64,000 nucleotides of DNA from a virus (IMGVR_UViG_3300046725_000049:5088-69087); one strand, 5' to 3'; numbered from the stretch's first letter, positions 1 to 60,381 are shown. Numbers and translations are program-made. Notes: generated by a model not told the origin, from the sequence alone.

Positions 1-813
1 GGCCTGGAAATCGACTGGGAGGCCGTCGAGCAGGCCCAGGAGGAGCAGAAGCTGCTCGAAGCGCAGCAGGCCACCCTGGGCACACCCCCCGGCGGCCCGG
101 GTAGTCCAGCCGGCGGCCCGACCGCACCGGCGCCAGCCGCTTCGCCGGTGGTCGACCCGGCGCTGCTGCCACCCGGGTTCACCCTCAGCCACACCGAGCG
201 TGACCCGAGCAACCCCGACTTCCTGACCCTGACCCAGGAGGCCCGCCAACTGCTCCAGGACGCCGCCGACGGGCTGGCCTTCCTCGACGAGCCCACCGGT
301 GAGCCGGTCGAGCTGACCCGGGGCGTACCCAATAGCGGCCAACCCAAGCGGGTGCAGACCCCCGCCGGGGCGCAGGCATACGGCGTGCCGATCGGTACCC
401 CCATCACCCGGGACATGGCCCAGCGCACCGCCAAGGAGGGTGTCAAGGGCAAGAACTTCGGCGGCGGCATCCGCGACCCGCAGGGCGACAACAAGGGCCA
501 CCAGAAGCTCGGCGGCGGGTTGGGCGCCAAGGCGCAAAACCCCGGCGGTGTCGTCACCGACCCGACCAACCGGGCATCCACCCCGAAGCGGCTGCTCTCG
601 CACCCCGAGGCGCCCGGTGTCATCCTGCTCGACTTCGGCGATGGCACCTTCGCCATCCGCAACGTCGCCTCCGGGGCCGAAAGCCCCCGGCAGAAGTTCA
701 ACCTCGCCGACTTCACCAAACGGGGCTGGACCGCCGCCACCCCCGCCCCCGGCGCGGCGAAGAAGGCGACCGCCCGCAAGACCCGCGCCGCCAGCCGCAC
801 CGACGGTCAGTGA
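1..813 (+). CDS. Probable portal protein, C-terminal part (5' truncated) with long Pro/Gly-rich extension
   Basis: Frame 1 is open from base 1 (GLEIDWEAVEQAQEEQ...) to the stop at 813; lies directly upstream of MuF and the protease; the conserved portal core is outside the window. Confidence 0.55.
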   Translation, partial: GLEIDWEAVEQAQEEQKLLEAQQATLGTPPGGPGSPAGGPTAPAPAASPVVDPALLPPGFTLSHTERDPSNPDFLTLTQEARQLLQDAADGLAFLDEPTGEPVELTRGVPNSGQPKRVQTPAGAQAYGVPIGTPITRDMAQRTAKEGVKGKNFGGGIRDPQGDNKGHQKLGGGLGAKAQNPGGVVTDPTNRASTPKRLLSHPEAPGVILLDFGDGTFAIRNVASGAESPRQKFNLADFTKRGWTAATPAPGAAKKATARKTRAASRTDGQ

Positions 814-1640: not shown

Positions 1641-4600
1641 GTGGCGACCGAAACGCTCTACCCGCAGAACAACACCGGCTTCCTGCTCGACATGCTCACC
1701 AAGGCTGGCGCCTCCCCCGCGTTGCTGCACGTCGTGGCCGCCACCGGCGCCACCCACCTGGAGAGCCAGTACAAGTCCGGGCAGCCGGTAACCTTCCTGC
1801 TCACCACGCCCGGCGGCACCGTCACGGTCGACGAGAACGCCCTGGGGGACATCGAGCAGTCGGCTGTGTTCGGCAAGTACTTCGACAAGTGGCAGTCACC
1901 CGGACAGGTGAAGTTCAAGGACGACCTCCTCCTCGCCAAAGGCGCCGAAATCTCGGCTGGGTGGCACGACGAGATCCAGGTGTTCACGGCGACCGGTGAG
2001 GGCTACGCCAAGACCGTTACGGTGAAGGCAGACCTGACCCAGACCGCATCACCCGTCGAGCCCACACCCGCCGCCGAGCCGACACCCCCATCGCCGCCGA
2101 CCATCACGATCGGGCTGTTTTGCTTCGACCAGCACGGCCGCGCCGTGCCCTACACCGGCGGCACCGTCATCCCCACCTACGGCCGGGAGATGACCGCCGC
2201 CATCAAGGCCATCGCCGCCGCGTTCGGCCACACCGTGGTCGGGCGGGGCCGCACCAAGATGTCCAAGCAGACCAAGCAGGAGTGGCTGCGGGCCTGGCAC
2301 AACGGCGACCTCAAGCAGTGCTACAGCATCGAACAGGGCCACGCCAAGACCAGCCTGAAACATCCGGGGGCGCCGGGCAACCAGCCAACCCACCGCGTCA
2401 TCTGGCAACCCGCCGTGGCGGGGGAGACCCCGGCAGGTGAGCTGGTCCCCGGCGACTGGTCCTCCCCGCTGAGCGTCAAGTCCGGCGCTGAGATTGACAA
2501 CTATCTCATCGCGGCGGGCATGGCCCACCCCCGCCAGCTCGGCTCCGCCCACCGCGCCCGCTGGGTCATCGCCCACCAGAAGGGCGACAAGGTCAGCGTC
2601 GATGCCATCTCACGCAGTGCCAAGCAGTCTGCCGGCTGGCACCGCTCGTATCCTCCGGTGTGGAACGACCTGGCCCCGCAGCCGTCTCTGGAGACCTGCC
2701 TGCAAGACGAGGTGGCGGTCAACCTGTGGCCGGTCAACGCCCTGGTGAGCTATTCGACCGACGCCGGCCTGCCCGTGGCGGTGTGCTGGAGCGACCTGGT
2801 CACTGTGGTCACCGAACACCGTGCCCAGCTCGCCGCCGAACAGGCCGCCCGCGACGCTGTGCTCACCTTCACCGTCGCCGAGCGGCAGCCGACCCTCACC
2901 GGCTACCACCGCAAGATGGTGCTGGTCGACCAACACGGCCGGCAGTGGCTGTTCAAACCCGCCCCGCTGCGGGCACGCCAGTCCCAACCGGAGCTGTTCC
3001 GCGCGCAAACCGAACACGAGGCCCACACACTGGCCCGCGCCTGGGGCTACCGCACCGCCGAGAGCCAGCTCATCGAGTTCGACGGCGTCTACGGCCAGAT
3101 CCAGGCTATGCTGCCCATCCAATCAACCCTCGCCGGGTTCACCGGCGCCGCGTTCGCCACCCTGACCCGCACCCAGTTGTGCGCCCTGGCTCGTGAACAC
3201 CTCCTCGACTGGGCCATCGACAATGATGATAGTCACGGGGAAAACATCGGCGTCCTTGCCGACGGATCCATCGTCGGTATCGACAAGGGCCGCGCCTGGC
3301 GCTACTTCGGTGGCTGGGACGGCCTATCCGGCGACTCCTCGGCCAACAGCAACGCCCCACTGGCATACACCGCCCTGTATGCCGCCATCGCGCAGCACCA
3401 CCTCGACCGGGACACCGTCGATGCCATGTACCGGGAAGTCATCGCCCAGGCCCGCCGCATGCAGCGGCTACCCGACGCCCGGCTGGCCGAGATCATCGGC
3501 CGGGCCGTGGCCAACCGGCCGCACTACCGACCCTCCTCCTACCAGCCGGCCGTCTCCGACGCCCCCGCTGACGCGGCCGAGCTGATCGCCGCCGCGACCG
3601 CCCGCAAAAACACCCTCGTAACAGACATGACGGCCCTGTGGTCGCGCATCTACCAGCGCGCCGGCTGGCCACCACCGGACCCGCTGTGTGCCCCGCTGGG
3701 CGACAACGCCCAGGGCCACCCGCTGCACAGCGGGCTGCAAAGCCCCGAACTGCACCACGCCATCACCCAGACCAAGTCCTACGGCACCGCCGCGTTCGTG
3801 GCCGGCACCGACATCGAAGACGCCCACATCCTGCTGTGGCGCGAACGCCGCCCCGACGGCGCCTTCACCATCCGAGGCCACGCCAAGGTACGCGGCGAGG
3901 CATACCAGCGGCTGCGAACCTGGTGCCGCGAGCACACCACCACAGCGAAGGCGGCCCCGAAGACGGCAGCACCCACCTTGCCTGGCGAACCGGCCTTCTA
4001 CGAGGCCATCATCGCCGCAGCCAAGACGATCTCCTATCACCACGAGGACAAGCAGTACAACGACGAGAAGATCGCCAAGCTGCAATGGGCCACCACGCAG
4101 CTCCTGCACGACCGCAAGCGATGCCAGACGCTACTCGACCAGTACACGCCCGACCCCGACGGTGCACTGGCCGCCACGGCGGCGATGTGCCAGCAATACC
4201 TGGGCTACATCGACGCCATCACCGTCCACCAGCACCAGGGCAGCCGGTCCAAGGAAGGCGACTTCCCGCGTTACCTCTACACCCCCACCACCGTTGAGCC
4301 ACTGCCGCCGCCACCGCCTGCGCCGTTCACCGTCGAACTGTGCCCGGCCACCCGCGCCGCAGCCCACCAGGGCGAAACCGTCAAACTCGGCCACGACGGC
4401 GAGCTTGACCTCGATGGCAGCGTGCTGCGCGACGGCCCCGACTACCAGGGACAACCCGGCAAGATGTACCTGATCACTCTGCCGGGTGGGCAGCAGATCG
4501 AGTACCGAGGCGCCAGCGAAACCGATACCCCGCGCGCGCTACACGGACAGCTCCAGTTCAGCATCCCCAACGCCGAGCACCTGCCCGCCGCGCTGGCCAC

Positions 4601-5549
4601 CATCACCAACCAGCTCGCTGTCATGGGTCTGACCCTGGCCGATGCCGACCTGACCGACCTGGAGCTGTTCTACTGGCGGCACCTGGCCGCTGTCATGGGC
4701 AACCGGGCCGACTCCCGCCCCGACGGCCAGCCCAGCATCGGTGTGCCGCAAGGCAAGTACAGCGAGTTTTGGCGCCGCACCGCCGATGTCGGCAAGACGC
4801 CCAGCCGCGATCAGGAACTGGCCATGTGGCGCCACGCCTTCGCCGCCCTGTGCGACCCCGAACAGATCGAGGCATTCCTGGCCGCCGACGGGCACCTGCC
4901 CCGGTTCATGCACCTGGACACCCGCAACCCCACCCAGCCCTGCGGCAAGCCCTACTGGGAACGCTTCGACGTACCCCGATCCGTCTGGGCCACTCGTGCC
5001 ATGCCGGTCCTGGCCTACCGCAGCGGCCCCCGCTGGGCGGTGGCGGCCGGTGCCTGCATGAGCACCGAGACCCGCATCCGCACCATGGCCATCTGGAAGA
5101 ACGGCATGTCCTCGGTGGAGGACATGACCTTCGGATCGTCGGCCTACGTGTTCACCCGCCAGAACATGGTCGAGTTCAGCTCGATGAATGTGTACGTCAA
5201 CCCTCGGGTGTTGATCCGCACCACCAACTACGCCTACCCAGTCGACCAGTTCGGTCGTGTTGGCGAACGTAAACTGCGGGCCTACTTCGATTTCGCCACC
5301 GCGACCGGCTACATCGAACACGGCAACGAACTCATGATCAAACACAGTCTCAGCCTGCTGGATGACATCGAGGTCCTGGTGTTCGCCGACGAAGCCCACC
5401 GCGCACGTGCTATCAAGATGCTGGCCGAACGCGGCATCACCGAGATCCGGGGACTACCGGTGGCCACCCGTATCGTCAACCGACGCGACCCAGCGGCCAG
5501 AGCCGCCGCCCTGGCCGCTGTGAAACAATCCCTGATGTGCCCGAGCTGA
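1641..5549 (+). CDS. 1302-aa multidomain protein: PI3K/HipA-like atypical kinase domain plus C-terminal putative ART-like domain
   Basis: Kinase motifs WLFKP (2946), DWAIDNDDSHGEN (~3207-3245), VGIDKG (~3273-3290); C-terminal GMSS..D...GSSAYVFTR...GNELMIK (ART assignment tentative). Confidence 0.7.
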   Translation: MATETLYPQNNTGFLLDMLTKAGASPALLHVVAATGATHLESQYKSGQPVTFLLTTPGGTVTVDENALGDIEQSAVFGKYFDKWQSPGQVKFKDDLLLAKGAEISAGWHDEIQVFTATGEGYAKTVTVKADLTQTASPVEPTPAAEPTPPSPPTITIGLFCFDQHGRAVPYTGGTVIPTYGREMTAAIKAIAAAFGHTVVGRGRTKMSKQTKQEWLRAWHNGDLKQCYSIEQGHAKTSLKHPGAPGNQPTHRVIWQPAVAGETPAGELVPGDWSSPLSVKSGAEIDNYLIAAGMAHPRQLGSAHRARWVIAHQKGDKVSVDAISRSAKQSAGWHRSYPPVWNDLAPQPSLETCLQDEVAVNLWPVNALVSYSTDAGLPVAVCWSDLVTVVTEHRAQLAAEQAARDAVLTFTVAERQPTLTGYHRKMVLVDQHGRQWLFKPAPLRARQSQPELFRAQTEHEAHTLARAWGYRTAESQLIEFDGVYGQIQAMLPIQSTLAGFTGAAFATLTRTQLCALAREHLLDWAIDNDDSHGENIGVLADGSIVGIDKGRAWRYFGGWDGLSGDSSANSNAPLAYTALYAAIAQHHLDRDTVDAMYREVIAQARRMQRLPDARLAEIIGRAVANRPHYRPSSYQPAVSDAPADAAELIAAATARKNTLVTDMTALWSRIYQRAGWPPPDPLCAPLGDNAQGHPLHSGLQSPELHHAITQTKSYGTAAFVAGTDIEDAHILLWRERRPDGAFTIRGHAKVRGEAYQRLRTWCREHTTTAKAAPKTAAPTLPGEPAFYEAIIAAAKTISYHHEDKQYNDEKIAKLQWATTQLLHDRKRCQTLLDQYTPDPDGALAATAAMCQQYLGYIDAITVHQHQGSRSKEGDFPRYLYTPTTVEPLPPPPPAPFTVELCPATRAAAHQGETVKLGHDGELDLDGSVLRDGPDYQGQPGKMYLITLPGGQQIEYRGASETDTPRALHGQLQFSIPNAEHLPAALATITNQLAVMGLTLADADLTDLELFYWRHLAAVMGNRADSRPDGQPSIGVPQGKYSEFWRRTADVGKTPSRDQELAMWRHAFAALCDPEQIEAFLAADGHLPRFMHLDTRNPTQPCGKPYWERFDVPRSVWATRAMPVLAYRSGPRWAVAAGACMSTETRIRTMAIWKNGMSSVEDMTFGSSAYVFTRQNMVEFSSMNVYVNPRVLIRTTNYAYPVDQFGRVGERKLRAYFDFATATGYIEHGNELMIKHSLSLLDDIEVLVFADEAHRARAIKMLAERGITEIRGLPVATRIVNRRDPAARAAALAAVKQSLMCPS

Positions 5550-5818
5550 CCTGGCAGGAACGCTTCGACGCGGACTTCCCACACGGTCTGGTCATGCGCT
5601 GGTTCGGTGATGTCGCCAGCCCCCGCTACACCATCGAACGTGTCGAGGTCATCGCCGAGCAGGACGCCATGCCGGTCATCTACCTGCAAGTCAGCGGCGC
5701 GCAAAAATCCTTCGAGGTGCACGTGCTCGACTACCACGTCATCGGCAACGAGCATCTCACCGCCCGGGTGCGGGCGATGAGCATCCCCGACATGCTCTGG
5801 AGCGCCATCCCCGGCTAG
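5537..5818 (+). CDS. 93-aa hypothetical protein, possible immunity/partner of the upstream large protein
   Basis: GTG start overlaps the upstream ORF end by 13 nt; GC3-rich codons; function inferred from position only. Confidence 0.6.
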   Translation: MPELTWQERFDADFPHGLVMRWFGDVASPRYTIERVEVIAEQDAMPVIYLQVSGAQKSFEVHVLDYHVIGNEHLTARVRAMSIPDMLWSAIPG

Positions 5819-5845
5819 TCGAACCAAGGACCAGCCCCGACACCG

Positions 5846-5853
5846 ACCGATAG
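5846..5853 (+). promoter_or_regulatory. Candidate sigma-28-type -10 element ACCGATAG
   Basis: Intergenic, 33 nt before the protease start, followed by the RBS GGGAGG; same motif precedes other structural genes. Confidence 0.5.
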
Positions 5854-5878
5854 AGGTCAGTGTTGAGGGAGGTCCAAG

Positions 5879-6985
5879 GTGTCCGACGAACTGGTCATCG
5901 TGCCGTCTGACGGCGACGGCTACGTGGAACTGGCCCGCACCAAGCAGGGCCGCCTGTTCCGAAAGCACATCCTCAACAAGGGTGAGCTGATCCACCCGAC
6001 GACCAAGAAGAAAATCAAGGTCGACGACACCTTCATCGGCACCCTGAAGGACAACTTCGCAAAGGGCTACTGCGACATCGTCCAGGTGCCGCTGGCCGGC
6101 AAGAACAACGAACACACCGAGGCGCCCGAGAAGAACATCGGCGAAGTCATCGGCATCGAGGAAAAGGACAACAAGGTCTACGCGCTGATCGACGCGCGCA
6201 AACCAGAGTTCGCCGATCAGCTCGGAAAGACCCTGCTCGGTGCCTCCGCGATGCTGCACCTGGACTACACCGACACCAAGACCGACACCAAGGTCGGTCC
6301 GACCCTCCTGCATACGTGCGTGACCAACCGCCCGTACGTCACCGGGCTCGATGACTACCAGGAGATCCTCAGCGCTACGTCCGATACATCTCAGGGAGCG
6401 GTGCTGCTTAGCGCCGACGTGGTGGAAGTGACACCGACCGAGGAGAAGGACGAGATGGGCGACGAGCCGACCAAGGAGACGCCGGCCAAGCCGACCAAGG
6501 ACGAACTGCTGTCGATCCTCAAGTCGGAACACGGTGTCGACGTATCCGCACTCCAGGCCAAGGCCGAGGAGGGCACCCAGGCCGCGCAGCTTTCCAAGGC
6601 CCTGGTCACCGCGCTCAGCGACGCCGGGGTGGTCAAGCTGGCCGCCGAGAACACCACCGAGGCACCGTCCACTGAGGACGTTGTCGGGGCGGTCGCCGAG
6701 CTGGCGCAAAACAACGTCACCCTCACCGACAAGGTGAGCAAGCTGGAGCGCCGCGACGCGCAGTACGCGGTGGACGCCCTCGTGGAGGCCGGTCGGGTCC
6801 TGCCGGCGCAGAAGAACGCCTTCGTCGACCTCAAGCTGAGCAACCCGAGCATGTTCGACGCGCTCGTGCCGGCGCAGCCGATCGTGAAGCTGTCCACCGA
6901 GGACGGTGTGAGCCCGCCCGAGGACGCCGCGCACAAGAAGAACATCGACGAAGAGGTAGCGCGGCTGTCCGCGCTTCTGAAGTAA
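5879..6985 (+). CDS. Mu gpI-like capsid maturation protease/scaffold
   Basis: GPTLLHTCVTNRPYVTGL resembles the Mu-like protease motif; acidic helical C-terminal scaffold region; precedes decoration and capsid genes. Confidence 0.8.
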   Translation: MSDELVIVPSDGDGYVELARTKQGRLFRKHILNKGELIHPTTKKKIKVDDTFIGTLKDNFAKGYCDIVQVPLAGKNNEHTEAPEKNIGEVIGIEEKDNKVYALIDARKPEFADQLGKTLLGASAMLHLDYTDTKTDTKVGPTLLHTCVTNRPYVTGLDDYQEILSATSDTSQGAVLLSADVVEVTPTEEKDEMGDEPTKETPAKPTKDELLSILKSEHGVDVSALQAKAEEGTQAAQLSKALVTALSDAGVVKLAAENTTEAPSTEDVVGAVAELAQNNVTLTDKVSKLERRDAQYAVDALVEAGRVLPAQKNAFVDLKLSNPSMFDALVPAQPIVKLSTEDGVSPPEDAAHKKNIDEEVARLSALLK

Positions 6986-7012: not shown

Positions 7013-7411
7013 ATGGCTACGCAGTACCAGAAGCTGCCGGTACCGGGTTACACCTCGCCGACGGCCGACTACACCGACCCGGAGATCCTTGCCTCCACTG
7101 CGAGGTTCACCCAGTGGGGTGTCACCCTGGCCGGTGGTCAGGGAGTCATCGCCGCCGGCACCGTCCTGGGCCGCAAGACGAGCGACAAGAAGTACTACGC
7201 CTACAACAACGCCAACGCCAACGGGACCGAGGTCGCCCGGGGAGTGCTGCGGCGCGCGGTGGACACCGGCGCTGCTGGCGCCGATGACCAGCAGGGCAAC
7301 ATCGTCGTGTCGGGGATTCTCAAGAACAACCTCGTCGTCGGCGCTGACGCCGCCGCGCTGACCGACCTCGGCGCCACCGTCGACACCGTGCAGAACATCT
7401 TCAAGTTCTAA
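7013..7411 (+). CDS. Head decoration protein (lambda gpD-like)
   Basis: GVTLAGGQGVIAAGTVLG...GTEVARGVL motif; 132 aa, immediately before the major capsid gene. Confidence 0.8.
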   Translation: MATQYQKLPVPGYTSPTADYTDPEILASTARFTQWGVTLAGGQGVIAAGTVLGRKTSDKKYYAYNNANANGTEVARGVLRRAVDTGAAGADDQQGNIVVSGILKNNLVVGADAAALTDLGATVDTVQNIFKF

Positions 7412-7588: not shown

Positions 7589-8608
7589 GTGCCTGACATC
7601 AGCCTCCTCGAACCGATGGTCCTTCGGGGCGTCGTCGAGAAGTTCACGACGCCCGAGACGCTGGTGATGCTCGGGCGCGTACCCCAGACCCCGTGGCCGT
7701 TCCCGAGCGTGACGTGGGACGTGATCAAGGGCTCCCGCATGGTCGCCAAGCCCAACGTTCCCAACAGCGAGGCGCACATCGTGCCCCGGCTGGGCCGCTC
7801 CCAGGAAGCGGCGGCCTTCATCTACCTGCGGGAGAAGAAGGTCTTTGAGCCGACCACGCTGCACTGGATTCGCACCCCCGGCGAGCTGGCCACCACCAAC
7901 GCCGAGAAGGCCGTCCTGCGTGAGGTGGCAGACCTCAACCAGCGCTTCGACAACTTCGCCGAACTGCTGCTGTGGGGCGCCATGCGCGGCAACCTCGCCT
8001 TCGACTTCCCCGACGTGCAGGCCGCCGTGGACTACAAGTTCCCGGCCTCGCACAAGCCGCACCCGGCCGTCGGCTGGGACACCGCCACCCCGCAGCAGAT
8101 CGTCTCGGACATCCGGGCGTGGAAGCGCCTGATCACCCGCGACGGGCGGGTTCCGGCCCGCGACGCGTTCGCCACCGAGCTGACCCTGGCCTACATCTTC
8201 GACAGCTTCGCCGCCACCGGCAACGCGGCCGGCAACTTCCTGGCCGGCACCCTGCTGTCGGACCGGATGAAGGACCAGTACTACAGCCAGGGAACCCTGC
8301 CCGGCTTCATGGGCCTGAACTGGACCCCCGTGGAGAGCATCTACGACGACGACGCGGGAGTCCACACCCTGTTCGTGCCGGACAACGCGCTGTTCATCGG
8401 CAACTACACCGACCAGAAGCCGATCGAGCTGATGATCGGACCCACCGCCGACGACGAGGCACCGGACAACTTCACCGGAAAGTACAGTAAGAGCTGGAAA
8501 GAGCCCGACCCGTCCGCCCGACAGTTCATGATCGAGTGGAATCTGCTTCCCATCGTGACCCGCCCGGAGCAGATGCTGTACGTCGCGGATGTCACCTCTA
8601 CCACCTGA
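7589..8608 (+). CDS. Major capsid protein (lambda gpE-like)
   Basis: 339 aa; strong RBS AAGGAG; gpE-like features (P...W..., LREKK, QRFDNFAELLLWGAM, VDYKFP). Confidence 0.9.
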   Translation: MPDISLLEPMVLRGVVEKFTTPETLVMLGRVPQTPWPFPSVTWDVIKGSRMVAKPNVPNSEAHIVPRLGRSQEAAAFIYLREKKVFEPTTLHWIRTPGELATTNAEKAVLREVADLNQRFDNFAELLLWGAMRGNLAFDFPDVQAAVDYKFPASHKPHPAVGWDTATPQQIVSDIRAWKRLITRDGRVPARDAFATELTLAYIFDSFAATGNAAGNFLAGTLLSDRMKDQYYSQGTLPGFMGLNWTPVESIYDDDAGVHTLFVPDNALFIGNYTDQKPIELMIGPTADDEAPDNFTGKYSKSWKEPDPSARQFMIEWNLLPIVTRPEQMLYVADVTSTT

Positions 8609-58906: not shown

Positions 58907-60381
58907 CGCCGTGCCGTGTTGTTGCGTGGCCCTAGTCTCGCGCTGAGGTGCTTCGTAACCGCGACCCGTTGCTTCGGCATCCGTCCGCCGTAGATCAGTT
59001 CGGTAACCTCCTGAGATCGGTGACCTAGCCGCTGGGAGACGTATGCGATGGGCACGCCATCATCCAGGAGCCAGCCGGCGTGAGTGTGTCGCAGATCGTG
59101 CGGAGTCGGAAACTTCTTAAGCCGGTCAGGGCAATCGCAGATCGAAACGGCGTAACGAGGTACCCCGCAGTGGTTGGGGCATCGGTTGTACCCACGCTGT
59201 ACGAATGCCCCGCACGGTGTACCCCGACCGGTCAGCCCGCCATTATCGCCGCAGCGCGGCCCCCCAAGTGCTCCTGTTGGCGTAGGTATTCCCTCGGGGA
59301 GAGGCGGGTGGAGATCACAACGGCATGCCGCTACCACCGCAGGATCCCAGCGTCGCCGCCTGAAATTGTTGTACATGATGCGCCCGCCTTCCGGCGCGCG
59401 GAACAGTAGGGCCTCATCCGGCTCCCCGAGAATGAGTGGCAGGAGATCATCGACAAGTCCTTGGTGAATCTCCACGAGCCGAGCTGTGCGTCCCTTGGTC
59501 AGGCCAAGGTAGGCGGGTCCAGGGTGTTCCGGCGTCCGCTGGGATGGCGGGTTGTTCTTCCACGCACGCCGGATTTTGGCGACTGGCTCGGGCTTCGCCA
59601 TGGGATCAATGGATCCGACTGACGCTGCGGTGGCTTCGCTCCAACGTGCGCCGGTACCGATGAGGTAGTCGACGAGTTGACGTGAATCGGGATGAAACTT
59701 GCTGCGGAGGAGCGCCCACTCCGCGTCCGTGAGGTGGACCCGCTCGGATTCCGGATCGTCGCAATCTTCGAGGTCGGTGGGCTGGAACTTCTTCTTCACG
59801 GTCCTCACCGGGTTGTCCACGACCCCGGGGACGCGGCACTCAAGCGCGTAGTTGAACACGGCCCCTGCAACCATCAAGTACCTCAGAACAGTGTCATAGT
59901 CGAGGCCGTGACCCTTACGGGCTGCCGCGCAGATCGGTCCTCTCTTGCCGTCAAGGCAATCGCACGCACGGAGCTTGTTGACGATCGCTGCGATATCTGG
60001 CGGGCGCACTTGGTCGAGCCGCAGGTGACCAATCTCGGGGATGATCATCCTCCGTAGATCCGAGGCGTTCCGGTCGCGCTGGCCGGCGCCGATGTTCTCC
60101 CGGTTCGCCTCAAGCCAGATCTTGGCGAACTCCGCGAACGTTGTCTCGGACCTTTCCGCGTCAGGCAAAGGCGTCCCGGGAATCAGCAAAGGCGTCCCGG
60201 GAATCAGCAGATGGTAGATGTGGTACTTGTCGATGTTGTGGTTCGCGTCCTCGACCAGGGCTTTGGCGGCCTTCGCCTTATTCTCCGAGGTCCAGCGAGT
60301 GGACTGCGGGGTACCCGCGCGGGAGCCGCCCAGGCGCCAGGCCACGCGCCAGGTCTTGCCGGTAAAGCTGAGGTCCGCCAC
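58903..60381 (-). CDS. int: Tyrosine integrase with Cys-rich insertions
   Basis: GARWSE, HDLRH, LGH, IYG catalytic motifs; N-terminal arm-binding-like domain. Confidence 0.95.
   Translation of the reverse strand: MADLSFTGKTWRVAWRLGGSRAGTPQSTRWTSENKAKAAKALVEDANHNIDKYHIYHLLIPGTPLLIPGTPLPDAERSETTFAEFAKIWLEANRENIGAGQRDRNASDLRRMIIPEIGHLRLDQVRPPDIAAIVNKLRACDCLDGKRGPICAAARKGHGLDYDTVLRYLMVAGAVFNYALECRVPGVVDNPVRTVKKKFQPTDLEDCDDPESERVHLTDAEWALLRSKFHPDSRQLVDYLIGTGARWSEATAASVGSIDPMAKPEPVAKIRRAWKNNPPSQRTPEHPGPAYLGLTKGRTARLVEIHQGLVDDLLPLILGEPDEALLFRAPEGGRIMYNNFRRRRWDPAVVAACRCDLHPPLPEGIPTPTGALGGPRCGDNGGLTGRGTPCGAFVQRGYNRCPNHCGVPRYAVSICDCPDRLKKFPTPHDLRHTHAGWLLDDGVPIAYVSQRLGHRSQEVTELIYGGRMPKQRVAVTKHLSARLGPRNNTARR
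60165..60209. repeat. Perfect 21-bp tandem duplication inside int
   Basis: GCAAAGGCGTCCCGGGAATCA x2 plus GCA; gives LLIPGTP-LLIPGTP. Confidence 0.95.

Follow-up and report, generated by a model that had tools for sequence, protein, structure and literature searches.

A predicted kinase and a DarT-like ADP-ribosyltransferase fold joined in a minimal phage head-operon protein

In a viral sequence window of 64,000 nucleotides (nt), we identified a gene for a 1302-amino-acid (aa) protein, here termed P0001, which is the minimal stand-alone form of a widespread and unstudied core of head-operon giants, consisting of a kinase and a DarT-like ADP-ribosyltransferase (ART). The window comprises bases 5088-69087 of the 69-kb IMG/VR contig IMGVR_UViG_3300046725_000049 (completeness about 45% according to CheckV), which derives from an uncultured actinobacterial phage; coordinates refer to the window unless stated otherwise. 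Phage proteins that are injected together with the DNA act before phage gene expression and decide the first minutes of infection, and to our knowledge few of them have been characterised, namely T4 Alt, the Dar proteins of phage P1 and the virion RNA polymerase of N4. We infer, with a probability of roughly 0.6, that P0001 is made late, packed and ejected, and that it modifies host macromolecules through its kinase and its ART. P0001 is the smallest natural version of the core, which makes it the easiest construct with which to express the protein, solve its structure and look for substrates.

Structure models carried the domain assignment. Residues 190-880 were modelled with AlphaFold2 from a 31-sequence alignment (mean predicted local distance difference test score (pLDDT) 89), and residues 881-1302 from a 40-sequence alignment (pLDDT 91, predicted template modelling score 0.88). 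The layout of the gene is as follows:

1641-2207, + strand: variable N-terminal region, residues 1-189 (column conservation 0.12-0.37; unalignable among short forms)
2208-2855, + strand: conserved helical N-module, residues 190-405 (WLxAWxxGD ... HPGxPxNxxTH; pLDDT >90)
2856-3671, + strand: predicted PI3/4-kinase/HipA-like kinase domain, residues 406-677 (structural matches)
3672-4280, + strand: middle region, modelled as alpha/beta plus a long helix, residues 678-880
4281-4964, + strand: region modelled as beta-sheet plus helical bundle ahead of the ART fold, residues 881-1108
4965-5504, + strand: predicted DarT-like ADP-ribosyltransferase fold, residues 1109-1288 (structural matches), with the putative catalytic E1230 at nt 5328-5330

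Searches against existing collections added little to this picture. A PDB sequence search with P0001 and its parts, as single sequences and as family profile, gave no matches, a PADLOC scan returned nothing for P0001, and the BFVD viral structure search found no match at E 1e-3 or better. Four domain libraries named neither enzyme domain above the curated cut-off, and only a sub-threshold, partial HipA_C match was obtained. ESM Atlas look-ups with the ART part yielded only unnamed clusters and structure neighbours of low confidence. The structure-search list for residues 190-880 was filled by the kinase, and the fold of the N-module was thus barely probed, while residues 881-1108 matched CYTH-like and TBP-like folds with Z 4-5, which is too weak to interpret.

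The first-pass annotation of this DNA had proposed a PI3K/HipA-like kinase core, and this proposal was borne out by the fold (Z 14-15) and by conserved catalytic residues. When residues 406-677 were compared with known structures, the matches included PI4KII-alpha (Z 14.8, 229 residues aligned, root-mean-square deviation (r.m.s.d.) 3.8), Helicobacter pylori CtkA (Z 14.6), actin-fragmin kinase (Z 12.2), class II/III PI3K (Z about 12) and HipA (Z 10.9). The kinase motifs of P0001 are located at residues 436-440 (WLFKP, nt 2946-2960), 527-535 (DNDDSHGEN, nt 3219-3245) and 547-550 (IDKG, nt 3279-3290). Judged by the fold, K439 in WLFKP would be the ATP lysine, E458 the helix-C glutamate, D530-x4-N535 the catalytic loop and D548 in IDKG the metal-binding aspartate, and among 141 homologues these residues are retained in 127 (K439), 122 (E458), 128 (D530), 123 (N535) and 133 (D548) proteins, that is, in 87-94%. 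P0001 thus shares with HipA, CtkA and type II PI4-kinases (Z 14.8-10.9) the fold, the catalytic Lys, the Glu, DxxxxN and the metal-binding Asp. Both the HipA N-terminal domain and HipB are lacking in P0001, and the HipA_C match (PF07804; E 2.6e-6) stays below threshold with 27.7 versus 30.5 bits and spans profile positions 3-62 of 213 only. Residues 406-677 are therefore predicted to form a PI3/4-kinase/HipA-like fold with an intact-looking active site.

For the C-terminal domain, the ART fold that had been suggested tentatively gained support from the pLDDT-91 model, from the structural matches and from a near-invariant glutamate. We performed an exhaustive structure comparison of the C-terminal model with 48,161 PDB representative chains, and the eight best of them were all ART-superfamily enzymes mapping to residues ~1109-1288: Escherichia coli DarT1 with NAD+ (8BAQ; Z 9.0, r.m.s.d. 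4.0, 160 of 208 residues), Thermosipho DarTG (Z 8.0), Mycobacterium tuberculosis DarT (Z 7.3), Thermus DarT (Z 7.2), SopF (Z 5.8), Tpt1 (Z 5.4), CopC (Z 5.2) and OspC3 (Z 5.1). Foldseek, as an independent tool, placed SopF first (E 9e-3) and also listed PARP1, PARP2 and DarT. In the model, E1230 opens the beta-strand 1230-1234 (ELMIK), and a hairpin strand and then a helix come next; the catalytic Glu of ARTs occupies this position. This residue is retained in 157 of 159 homologues, D1202 in 156, Y1197, R1108 and R1145 in 151 each and D1161 in 149; including R1147, S1157 and R1173, all eight of these further positions are kept in 146-156 homologues. The conserved C-terminal signature reads PYWxRFD, STExRxR, GxSSxxDxxxGS, FxR, RTxxYxxxxDxxG and GNE.

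An assignment to the R-S-E class built on the YRSG motif is not supported. Both YRSG (1126-1129) and GNELMIK (1228-1234) are present in P0001, but the arginine R1127 is variable, with S in 33, R in 24, G in 15 and N in 13 of the 159 homologues, besides other residues. The domain does not fit the R-S-E pattern of ARTC enzymes such as Alt, VIP2 and C3 (PF03496) either: STE is conserved (S in 116, T in 108 and E in 137 of 159), the third motif is G/S-N-E and not Q/E-x-E, and the Pfam scan gave no PF03496 match in P0001.

Several results weigh against the ART assignment. The Z of 9.0 is only modestly above the best-hit background of 7-8 stated for the tool; the Pfam models DarT (PF14487) and ART-PolyVal matched nothing in the contig even at E 10; PADLOC DarT models and a PDB profile search were both empty for the ART domain; hhalign of the 159-sequence domain alignment with eight genuine DarT sequences gave a probability of 0.2%; and the NAD-binding Arg/His position of the first strand is unconserved. 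Since Z 9.0 lies near the background, the case for an ART rests on the consistency of the hits and on the conservation pattern, and since hhalign gave no significant alignment to DarT, we claim no residue equivalences beyond E1230. With the DarT1/DarT2 structures (8BAQ, 7OMU, 7OMV and 7YK3; Z 9.0-7.2, 144-160 residues aligned) P0001 shares the invariant Glu at the strand start, the hairpin strand, the helix and conserved Args in the helix after the second strand. It differs from DarT in lacking sequence or profile similarity, a conserved first-strand His/Arg and a DarG/NADAR partner: the Pfam models of the antidotes, Macro and NADAR, had no match within the 69-kb contig, which is about 45% of the genome. 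In addition, DarT is a toxin of about 210 aa, whereas the P0001 ART is one domain of a giant phage protein. Because the DarT sequence models, profiles and hhalign were all negative, residues ~1109-1288 are best described as a predicted DarT-like ART fold, assigned at the fold level only, which forms a separate family by sequence and is not DarT.

The same core recurs in many larger proteins. The core, from residue ~200 to ~1300, is common to eighteen full-length homologues (1053-2253 aa), which are variable in their first ~190 residues. An exhaustive search with residues 881-1302 retrieved 411 representative proteins, and for 146 the E value was under 1e-30; counted as representative clusters, these show that hundreds of large uncultured phages have the two-enzyme core in their head operons. 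Most of the matches to the C-terminal module, among those listed, are C-termini of proteins of 2000-4200 aa, and each of the 15 giants that we aligned ends in the whole core, that is, N-module, kinase, linkers and ART. The pairing of kinase and ART is general, because 141 homologues match the kinase. Purifying selection seems to act on both active sites. The N-terminal parts of 15 sampled giants contain Nudix in five cases and ADPrib_exo_Tox in one. Among 185,579 species genomes, the C-terminal module had a single match, on a 4.7-kb contig of a metagenome-assembled genome, and prophage carriage is therefore rare.

The giant of a 138-kb relative, L039, is split by a frameshift (L039:3651-7074), with the kinase in frame 3 up to ~5771 and the ART in frame 1 from ~5905. 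An error in the sequence may explain this, or the gene may be a pseudogene or truly split.

The kinase family also occurs outside these giants. Gp56 of the Mycobacterium abscessus prophage prophiFVLQ01-1 (BK061310), annotated as 'minor capsid protein and ADP-ribosyltransferase fusion protein', combines a VG15/MuF domain and a kinase homologous to that of P0001 (hhalign 99%, E 9e-18) with an ART of the canonical ADPrib_exo_Tox type; the kinase family has therefore been joined to an ART of a different sequence family in one further lineage at least. Like P0001, gp56 carries the kinase ahead of a C-terminal ART, is encoded between portal and scaffold and is followed by an overlapping small open reading frame (ORF; 138 aa). 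Unlike P0001, it has an N-terminal VG15/MuF part and its ART is ADPrib_exo_Tox (Pfam E 1.5e-15) rather than DarT-like; the N-module and linker domains of P0001 were not detected in gp56. Furthermore, gp195 of mycobacteriophage Phrappuccino (2030 aa; L025:14358-20450), which adjoins a virion structural protein gene, opens with the same kinase family (hhalign 99.1%). This phage is in culture, and gp195 could be an experimental handle for the kinase.

ORF calls, Pfam and PHROGs verified the coordinates and neighbours of the 1302-aa ORF, which had been noted between MuF and the capsid protease, and the 13-nt overlap (5537-5549) of the 93-aa ORF, here P0002, with its stop. The head genes are arranged as follows:

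contig 1875-3776: large terminase
contig 3834-5900: portal, 688 aa, with its C-terminal 270 residues at window 1-813 (+ strand)
346-405, + strand: anchor-type motif KRVQTPAGAQAYGVPIGTPI in the portal extension, the only copy in the contig
810-1610, + strand: MuF-like minor head protein, 266 aa, in a gene of its own (Pfam, PHROGs)
1641-5549, + strand: P0001, 1302-aa multi-domain protein, GTG start
5537-5818, + strand: P0002, 93-aa gene, GTG start
5879-6985, + strand: Mu-like prohead protease/scaffold (Pfam, PHROGs), with a strong ribosome-binding site of its own
7013-7411, + strand: HDPD-family head decoration protein (domain-library match)
7589-8608, + strand: E-type major capsid protein (domain-library match)

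The MuF-like gene matches Pfam Phage_Mu_F with E 1.6e-5 and 26.1 bits, under the curated cut-off of 29.6, as well as the PHROG head-morphogenesis families 2662, 2468 and 115, and its product is 38-40% identical to those of MuF genes in related loci. The window has a GC content of 62-71% throughout, and the P0001 region is compositionally ordinary. Gene order is kept in 15 related loci that we examined, running from portal through MuF, giant, zero to two small ORFs, protease and decoration protein to capsid protein, and the giant retains its slot between MuF and protease.

Among cultured phages, Microbacterium phage Magritte (133 kb) is the nearest, with 63% identity in the major capsid protein. 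Its portal has 581 aa and is accompanied by a separate 108-aa gp14, versus 688 aa for the portal studied here, the C-terminal extension of which appears to be a gp14 equivalent fused to the portal. Magritte gp17 (L001:5926-11901, 1991 aa) occupies the same slot as P0001, but BLASTP and hhalign ruled it out as a homologue: all that gp17 shares with the giants is an N-terminal motif, and it has a weak GNAT match. The slot between MuF and protease seems to accept interchangeable giant cargo proteins.

This motif, approximately (R/K)xVxTPEGAxxYGxPIGxxI, is the anchor-type motif of the portal extension. It lies near the N-terminus of 31 family members (position 9-100 in 28), namely 30 of the 86 members of at least 2400 aa plus one shorter protein, and it also occurs in two Magritte proteins, N-terminally in gp17, which is unrelated, and in gp14, the small protein encoded after the portal. 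Since it is common to portal-adjacent proteins and giant cargo proteins, it resembles a head-localisation element and may serve as such or in portal binding.

Packaging of P0001 in the capsid is argued from the conserved head-operon position, the MuF/VG15 fusions of the kinase and the anchor motif of the giants. According to the reading that we favour, P0001 would be made late alongside portal, MuF, protease and capsid protein; a few copies would be enclosed in the procapsid and would exit the capsid with the DNA at the next infection; the kinase (with ATP) and the ART (with NAD+) might then modify host macromolecules, in takeover or counter-defence, by the logic proposed for T4 Alt and polyvalent proteins. 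Capsid delivery of a dual enzyme, as the first-pass annotation had proposed, fits the conserved synteny and the literature on polyvalent and MuF effectors. There are points that speak against it. P0001 carries neither a MuF fusion nor the anchor motif: no MuF match was found by Pfam or PHROGs, residues 1-189 contain neither element, and the motif is present in none of the 31 proteins of 1000-1500 aa. Moreover, the C-terminal module occurs in none of 50,697 cultured-phage genome records. From its context, packing and injection of P0001 are plausible, and on our main reading probable.

We then turn to P0002. With a GC content at third codon positions of 88% in frame, versus 67% and 39% in the other frames, and a dN/dS of about 0.46 relative to an orthologue, P0002 is a real gene. 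This orthologue (92 aa, 53% identical) shows the same 13-nt overlap, follows a giant fragment of 67% identity and precedes a protease of 78% identity. No Shine-Dalgarno sequence precedes P0002, the GTG of which is 10 nt ahead of the giant's TGA, and termination-reinitiation coupling is therefore likely. Its family is small: among 5.8 billion proteins only one homologue besides P0002 itself was found, and members are encoded at L005 (143 aa, E 4e-11), at L022 (53% identical) and, remotely, at L009 and L017 (hhalign 77-78%). P0002 had no match in Pfam, PHROGs or PADLOC, including immunity, antitoxin, macrodomain and NADAR models, and ESM Atlas look-ups returned only unnamed clusters and low-confidence structure neighbours. 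No similarity was found to Magritte gp18, which we had considered as a relative.

Behind the giants of related phages there are zero, one or two small genes. The first position, ORF-A, overlaps the giant's stop and is filled by several unrelated or barely related families, that of P0002 among them; it is lacking in L004 and L006, whose giants are the closest to P0001 (C-terminal module 50-52% identical). The second, ORF-B (~93 aa), adjoins the protease gene on its 5' side; of 14 comparable loci, 13 have it (all of L004-L017, L010 being a duplicate of L008). ORF-B is present neither at window 5819-5878 nor elsewhere in the 69-kb contig, and P0002 as a divergent ORF-B was ruled out by an hhalign probability of 0.2%. 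L039 has no small ORF between giant and protease, only a 62-nt gap with the element CCGATAA (~7100), which likewise occurs as CCGATAG at 5846-5852, just 5' of the protease gene, in the window; this agrees with a separate remark of the first-pass annotation on a motif resembling a late promoter. P0002 is best described as an accessory gene that is coupled to the giant and evolves fast, and the slot that it fills is variable.

These observations bear on the proposal that the 93-aa partner restrains a toxin. In such a toxin-immunity pair, the giant would be directed against competitors or newly infected cells, and P0002 would neutralise one of its domains in the producer or lysogen. Several features favour this: P0002 overlaps the giant's stop and is translationally coupled to it; it evolves faster than its neighbours (identity 53%, the giant being at 67% and the protease at 78%; dN/dS ~0.46); differing small-gene families fill the slot in differing phages, as in polymorphic toxin loci; and the M. 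abscessus MuF-kinase-ART protein also has its overlapping ORF of 138 aa behind it. A temperate lifestyle would be allowed by a tyrosine-recombinase gene on the contig, a 495-codon minus-strand frame (~58990-59112; contig 64077-64199), and because this frame matches the catalytic end of Phage_integrase (32.8 bits), the host phage may be temperate. However, the P0002 family is rare (one close homologue, one in L005, two remote), it is absent beside the L004 and L006 giants, and the L039 slot is empty, though the kinase and ART residues are conserved family-wide; P0002 matches no immunity model of any kind; and the module is found in only 1 of 185,579 species genomes, with the head operon silent in lysogens. 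Obligate immunity is unlikely, because P0002 does not travel with the conserved kinase and ART, and the restraining role given to it earlier is not supported; we consider a toxin-immunity pair improbable as a whole. For P0002, a function as accessory protein, chaperone or loading factor is more likely than obligate immunity, and so is an unrelated small gene of the head module; a lineage-specific role, as loading factor, regulator or optional immunity, may be compatible with its fast evolution and coupling. The apparent dispensability of the small downstream gene across relatives corrects a tempting toxin-immunity reading.

The remaining alternatives concern the giant itself. P0001 might act late in the producing cell and never be ejected, with, for example, the kinase phosphorylating scaffold, capsid or portal during assembly and the ART ADP-ribosylating phage or host DNA or RNA before packaging. 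It is co-transcribed with assembly genes, as no + strand terminator occurs between 700 and 7100, it has no recognisable capsid-targeting element, and the nearest structural relatives of its ART fold, the DarT enzymes, ADP-ribosylate DNA bases (PMC11543638). Its ART domain is also basic (isoelectric point (pI) 9.9), but the family is near neutral (median pI 6.9) and not uniformly nucleic-acid-binding in character, and net charge therefore says nothing about whether the substrate is a nucleic acid; a location in the head is indicated by the N-terminal motif that longer relatives carry and by the minor-capsid fusions of the kinase family. We hold this late, non-ejected role to be unlikely. Very unlikely, in our view, is a mainly structural internal head or ejection protein with inactive relic enzyme folds. 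In its favour, phage heads often contain large internal or ejection proteins, P0001 is matched by no sequence model for an active ART family, and the canonical first-strand NAD-binding residue is variable; against this, the catalytic-type polar residues of both domains persist in 87-99% of the homologues (141-159 sequences), although overall identity is only 27-57%, and such retention is a pattern of active sites rather than of scaffolds. A narrower form of delivery, which we put forward as a speculation with low odds, is that of a virion-delivered nucleic-acid modifier, the ART of which would on entry mark host DNA, arresting replication, or phage DNA, protecting it, while the invariably linked kinase would prepare or regulate the process. 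If true, this would be the first phage-injected DNA ADP-ribosyltransferase, and the fold of a bacterial anti-phage toxin would have been turned into a phage weapon; activity of the DarT-like domain on DNA or RNA would mean new chemistry in phage takeover.

The reading of P0001 as a delivered two-enzyme protein also has to be set against known systems. T4 Alt and the Dar proteins of phage P1 (DarB with the loading factors Hdf, DarA and DdrA) are packed in the capsid and injected with the DNA, and the latter illustrate that a small protein encoded alongside can help in loading and need not confer immunity. P0001 has no homology to these proteins, and its own packaging is proposed from context. 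Polyvalent proteins are head-packaged effectors rich in ARTs and kinases, for which early injection is predicted (PMC5512222; PMC9503650). Like them, P0001 is large, combines two conflict-type enzyme folds in one phage ORF and has its gene near those for portal, terminase and MuF; ART and kinase modules are among the most frequent ones in polyvalent proteins. Their kinases, however, belong to a truncated Ser/Thr/Tyr-kinase clade of Verrucomicrobia and Bacteroidetes phages, HipA being unmentioned (PMC5512222, PMC9503650), and their ARTs are of the Alt/VIP2, N4-ART and PolyVal types, of which Pfam ART-PolyVal does not match P0001. P0001 furthermore has two recognisable enzymes in a fixed core of 1100 residues and no shuffled string of modules.

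In MuF polymorphic toxins of temperate phages, ARTs account for 14% of the toxins, and DNA-coupled delivery has been hypothesised (PMC5576092). Their location in the head module and the small ORF after the toxin gene resemble P0001; unlike there, the 266-aa MuF protein has a gene of its own, the module is nearly absent from bacterial genomes and prophages, and the small ORF is not conserved with the enzymes. With MuF encoded separately, P0001 falls, strictly speaking, outside the MuF-fused polymorphic toxins. It belongs to the known class of polyvalent and MuF-linked virion effectors, as a new variant that pairs a kinase with a DarT-like fold: the literature provides the framework and not this pair (PMC5512222, PMC9503650, PMC5576092).

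Two further observations were made in related phages. The large terminase genes at L005:1-2532 and L039:1-293 show LAGLIDADG and intein Pfam matches, and the packaging ATPase of this phage group has therefore been invaded by inteins. On the 117-kb related contig L005, the portal (L005:2575-5214, 879 aa) has Pfam matches to Zeta_toxin/AAA_33, a P-loop kinase, and portals in this phage group therefore also bear enzymatic cargo.

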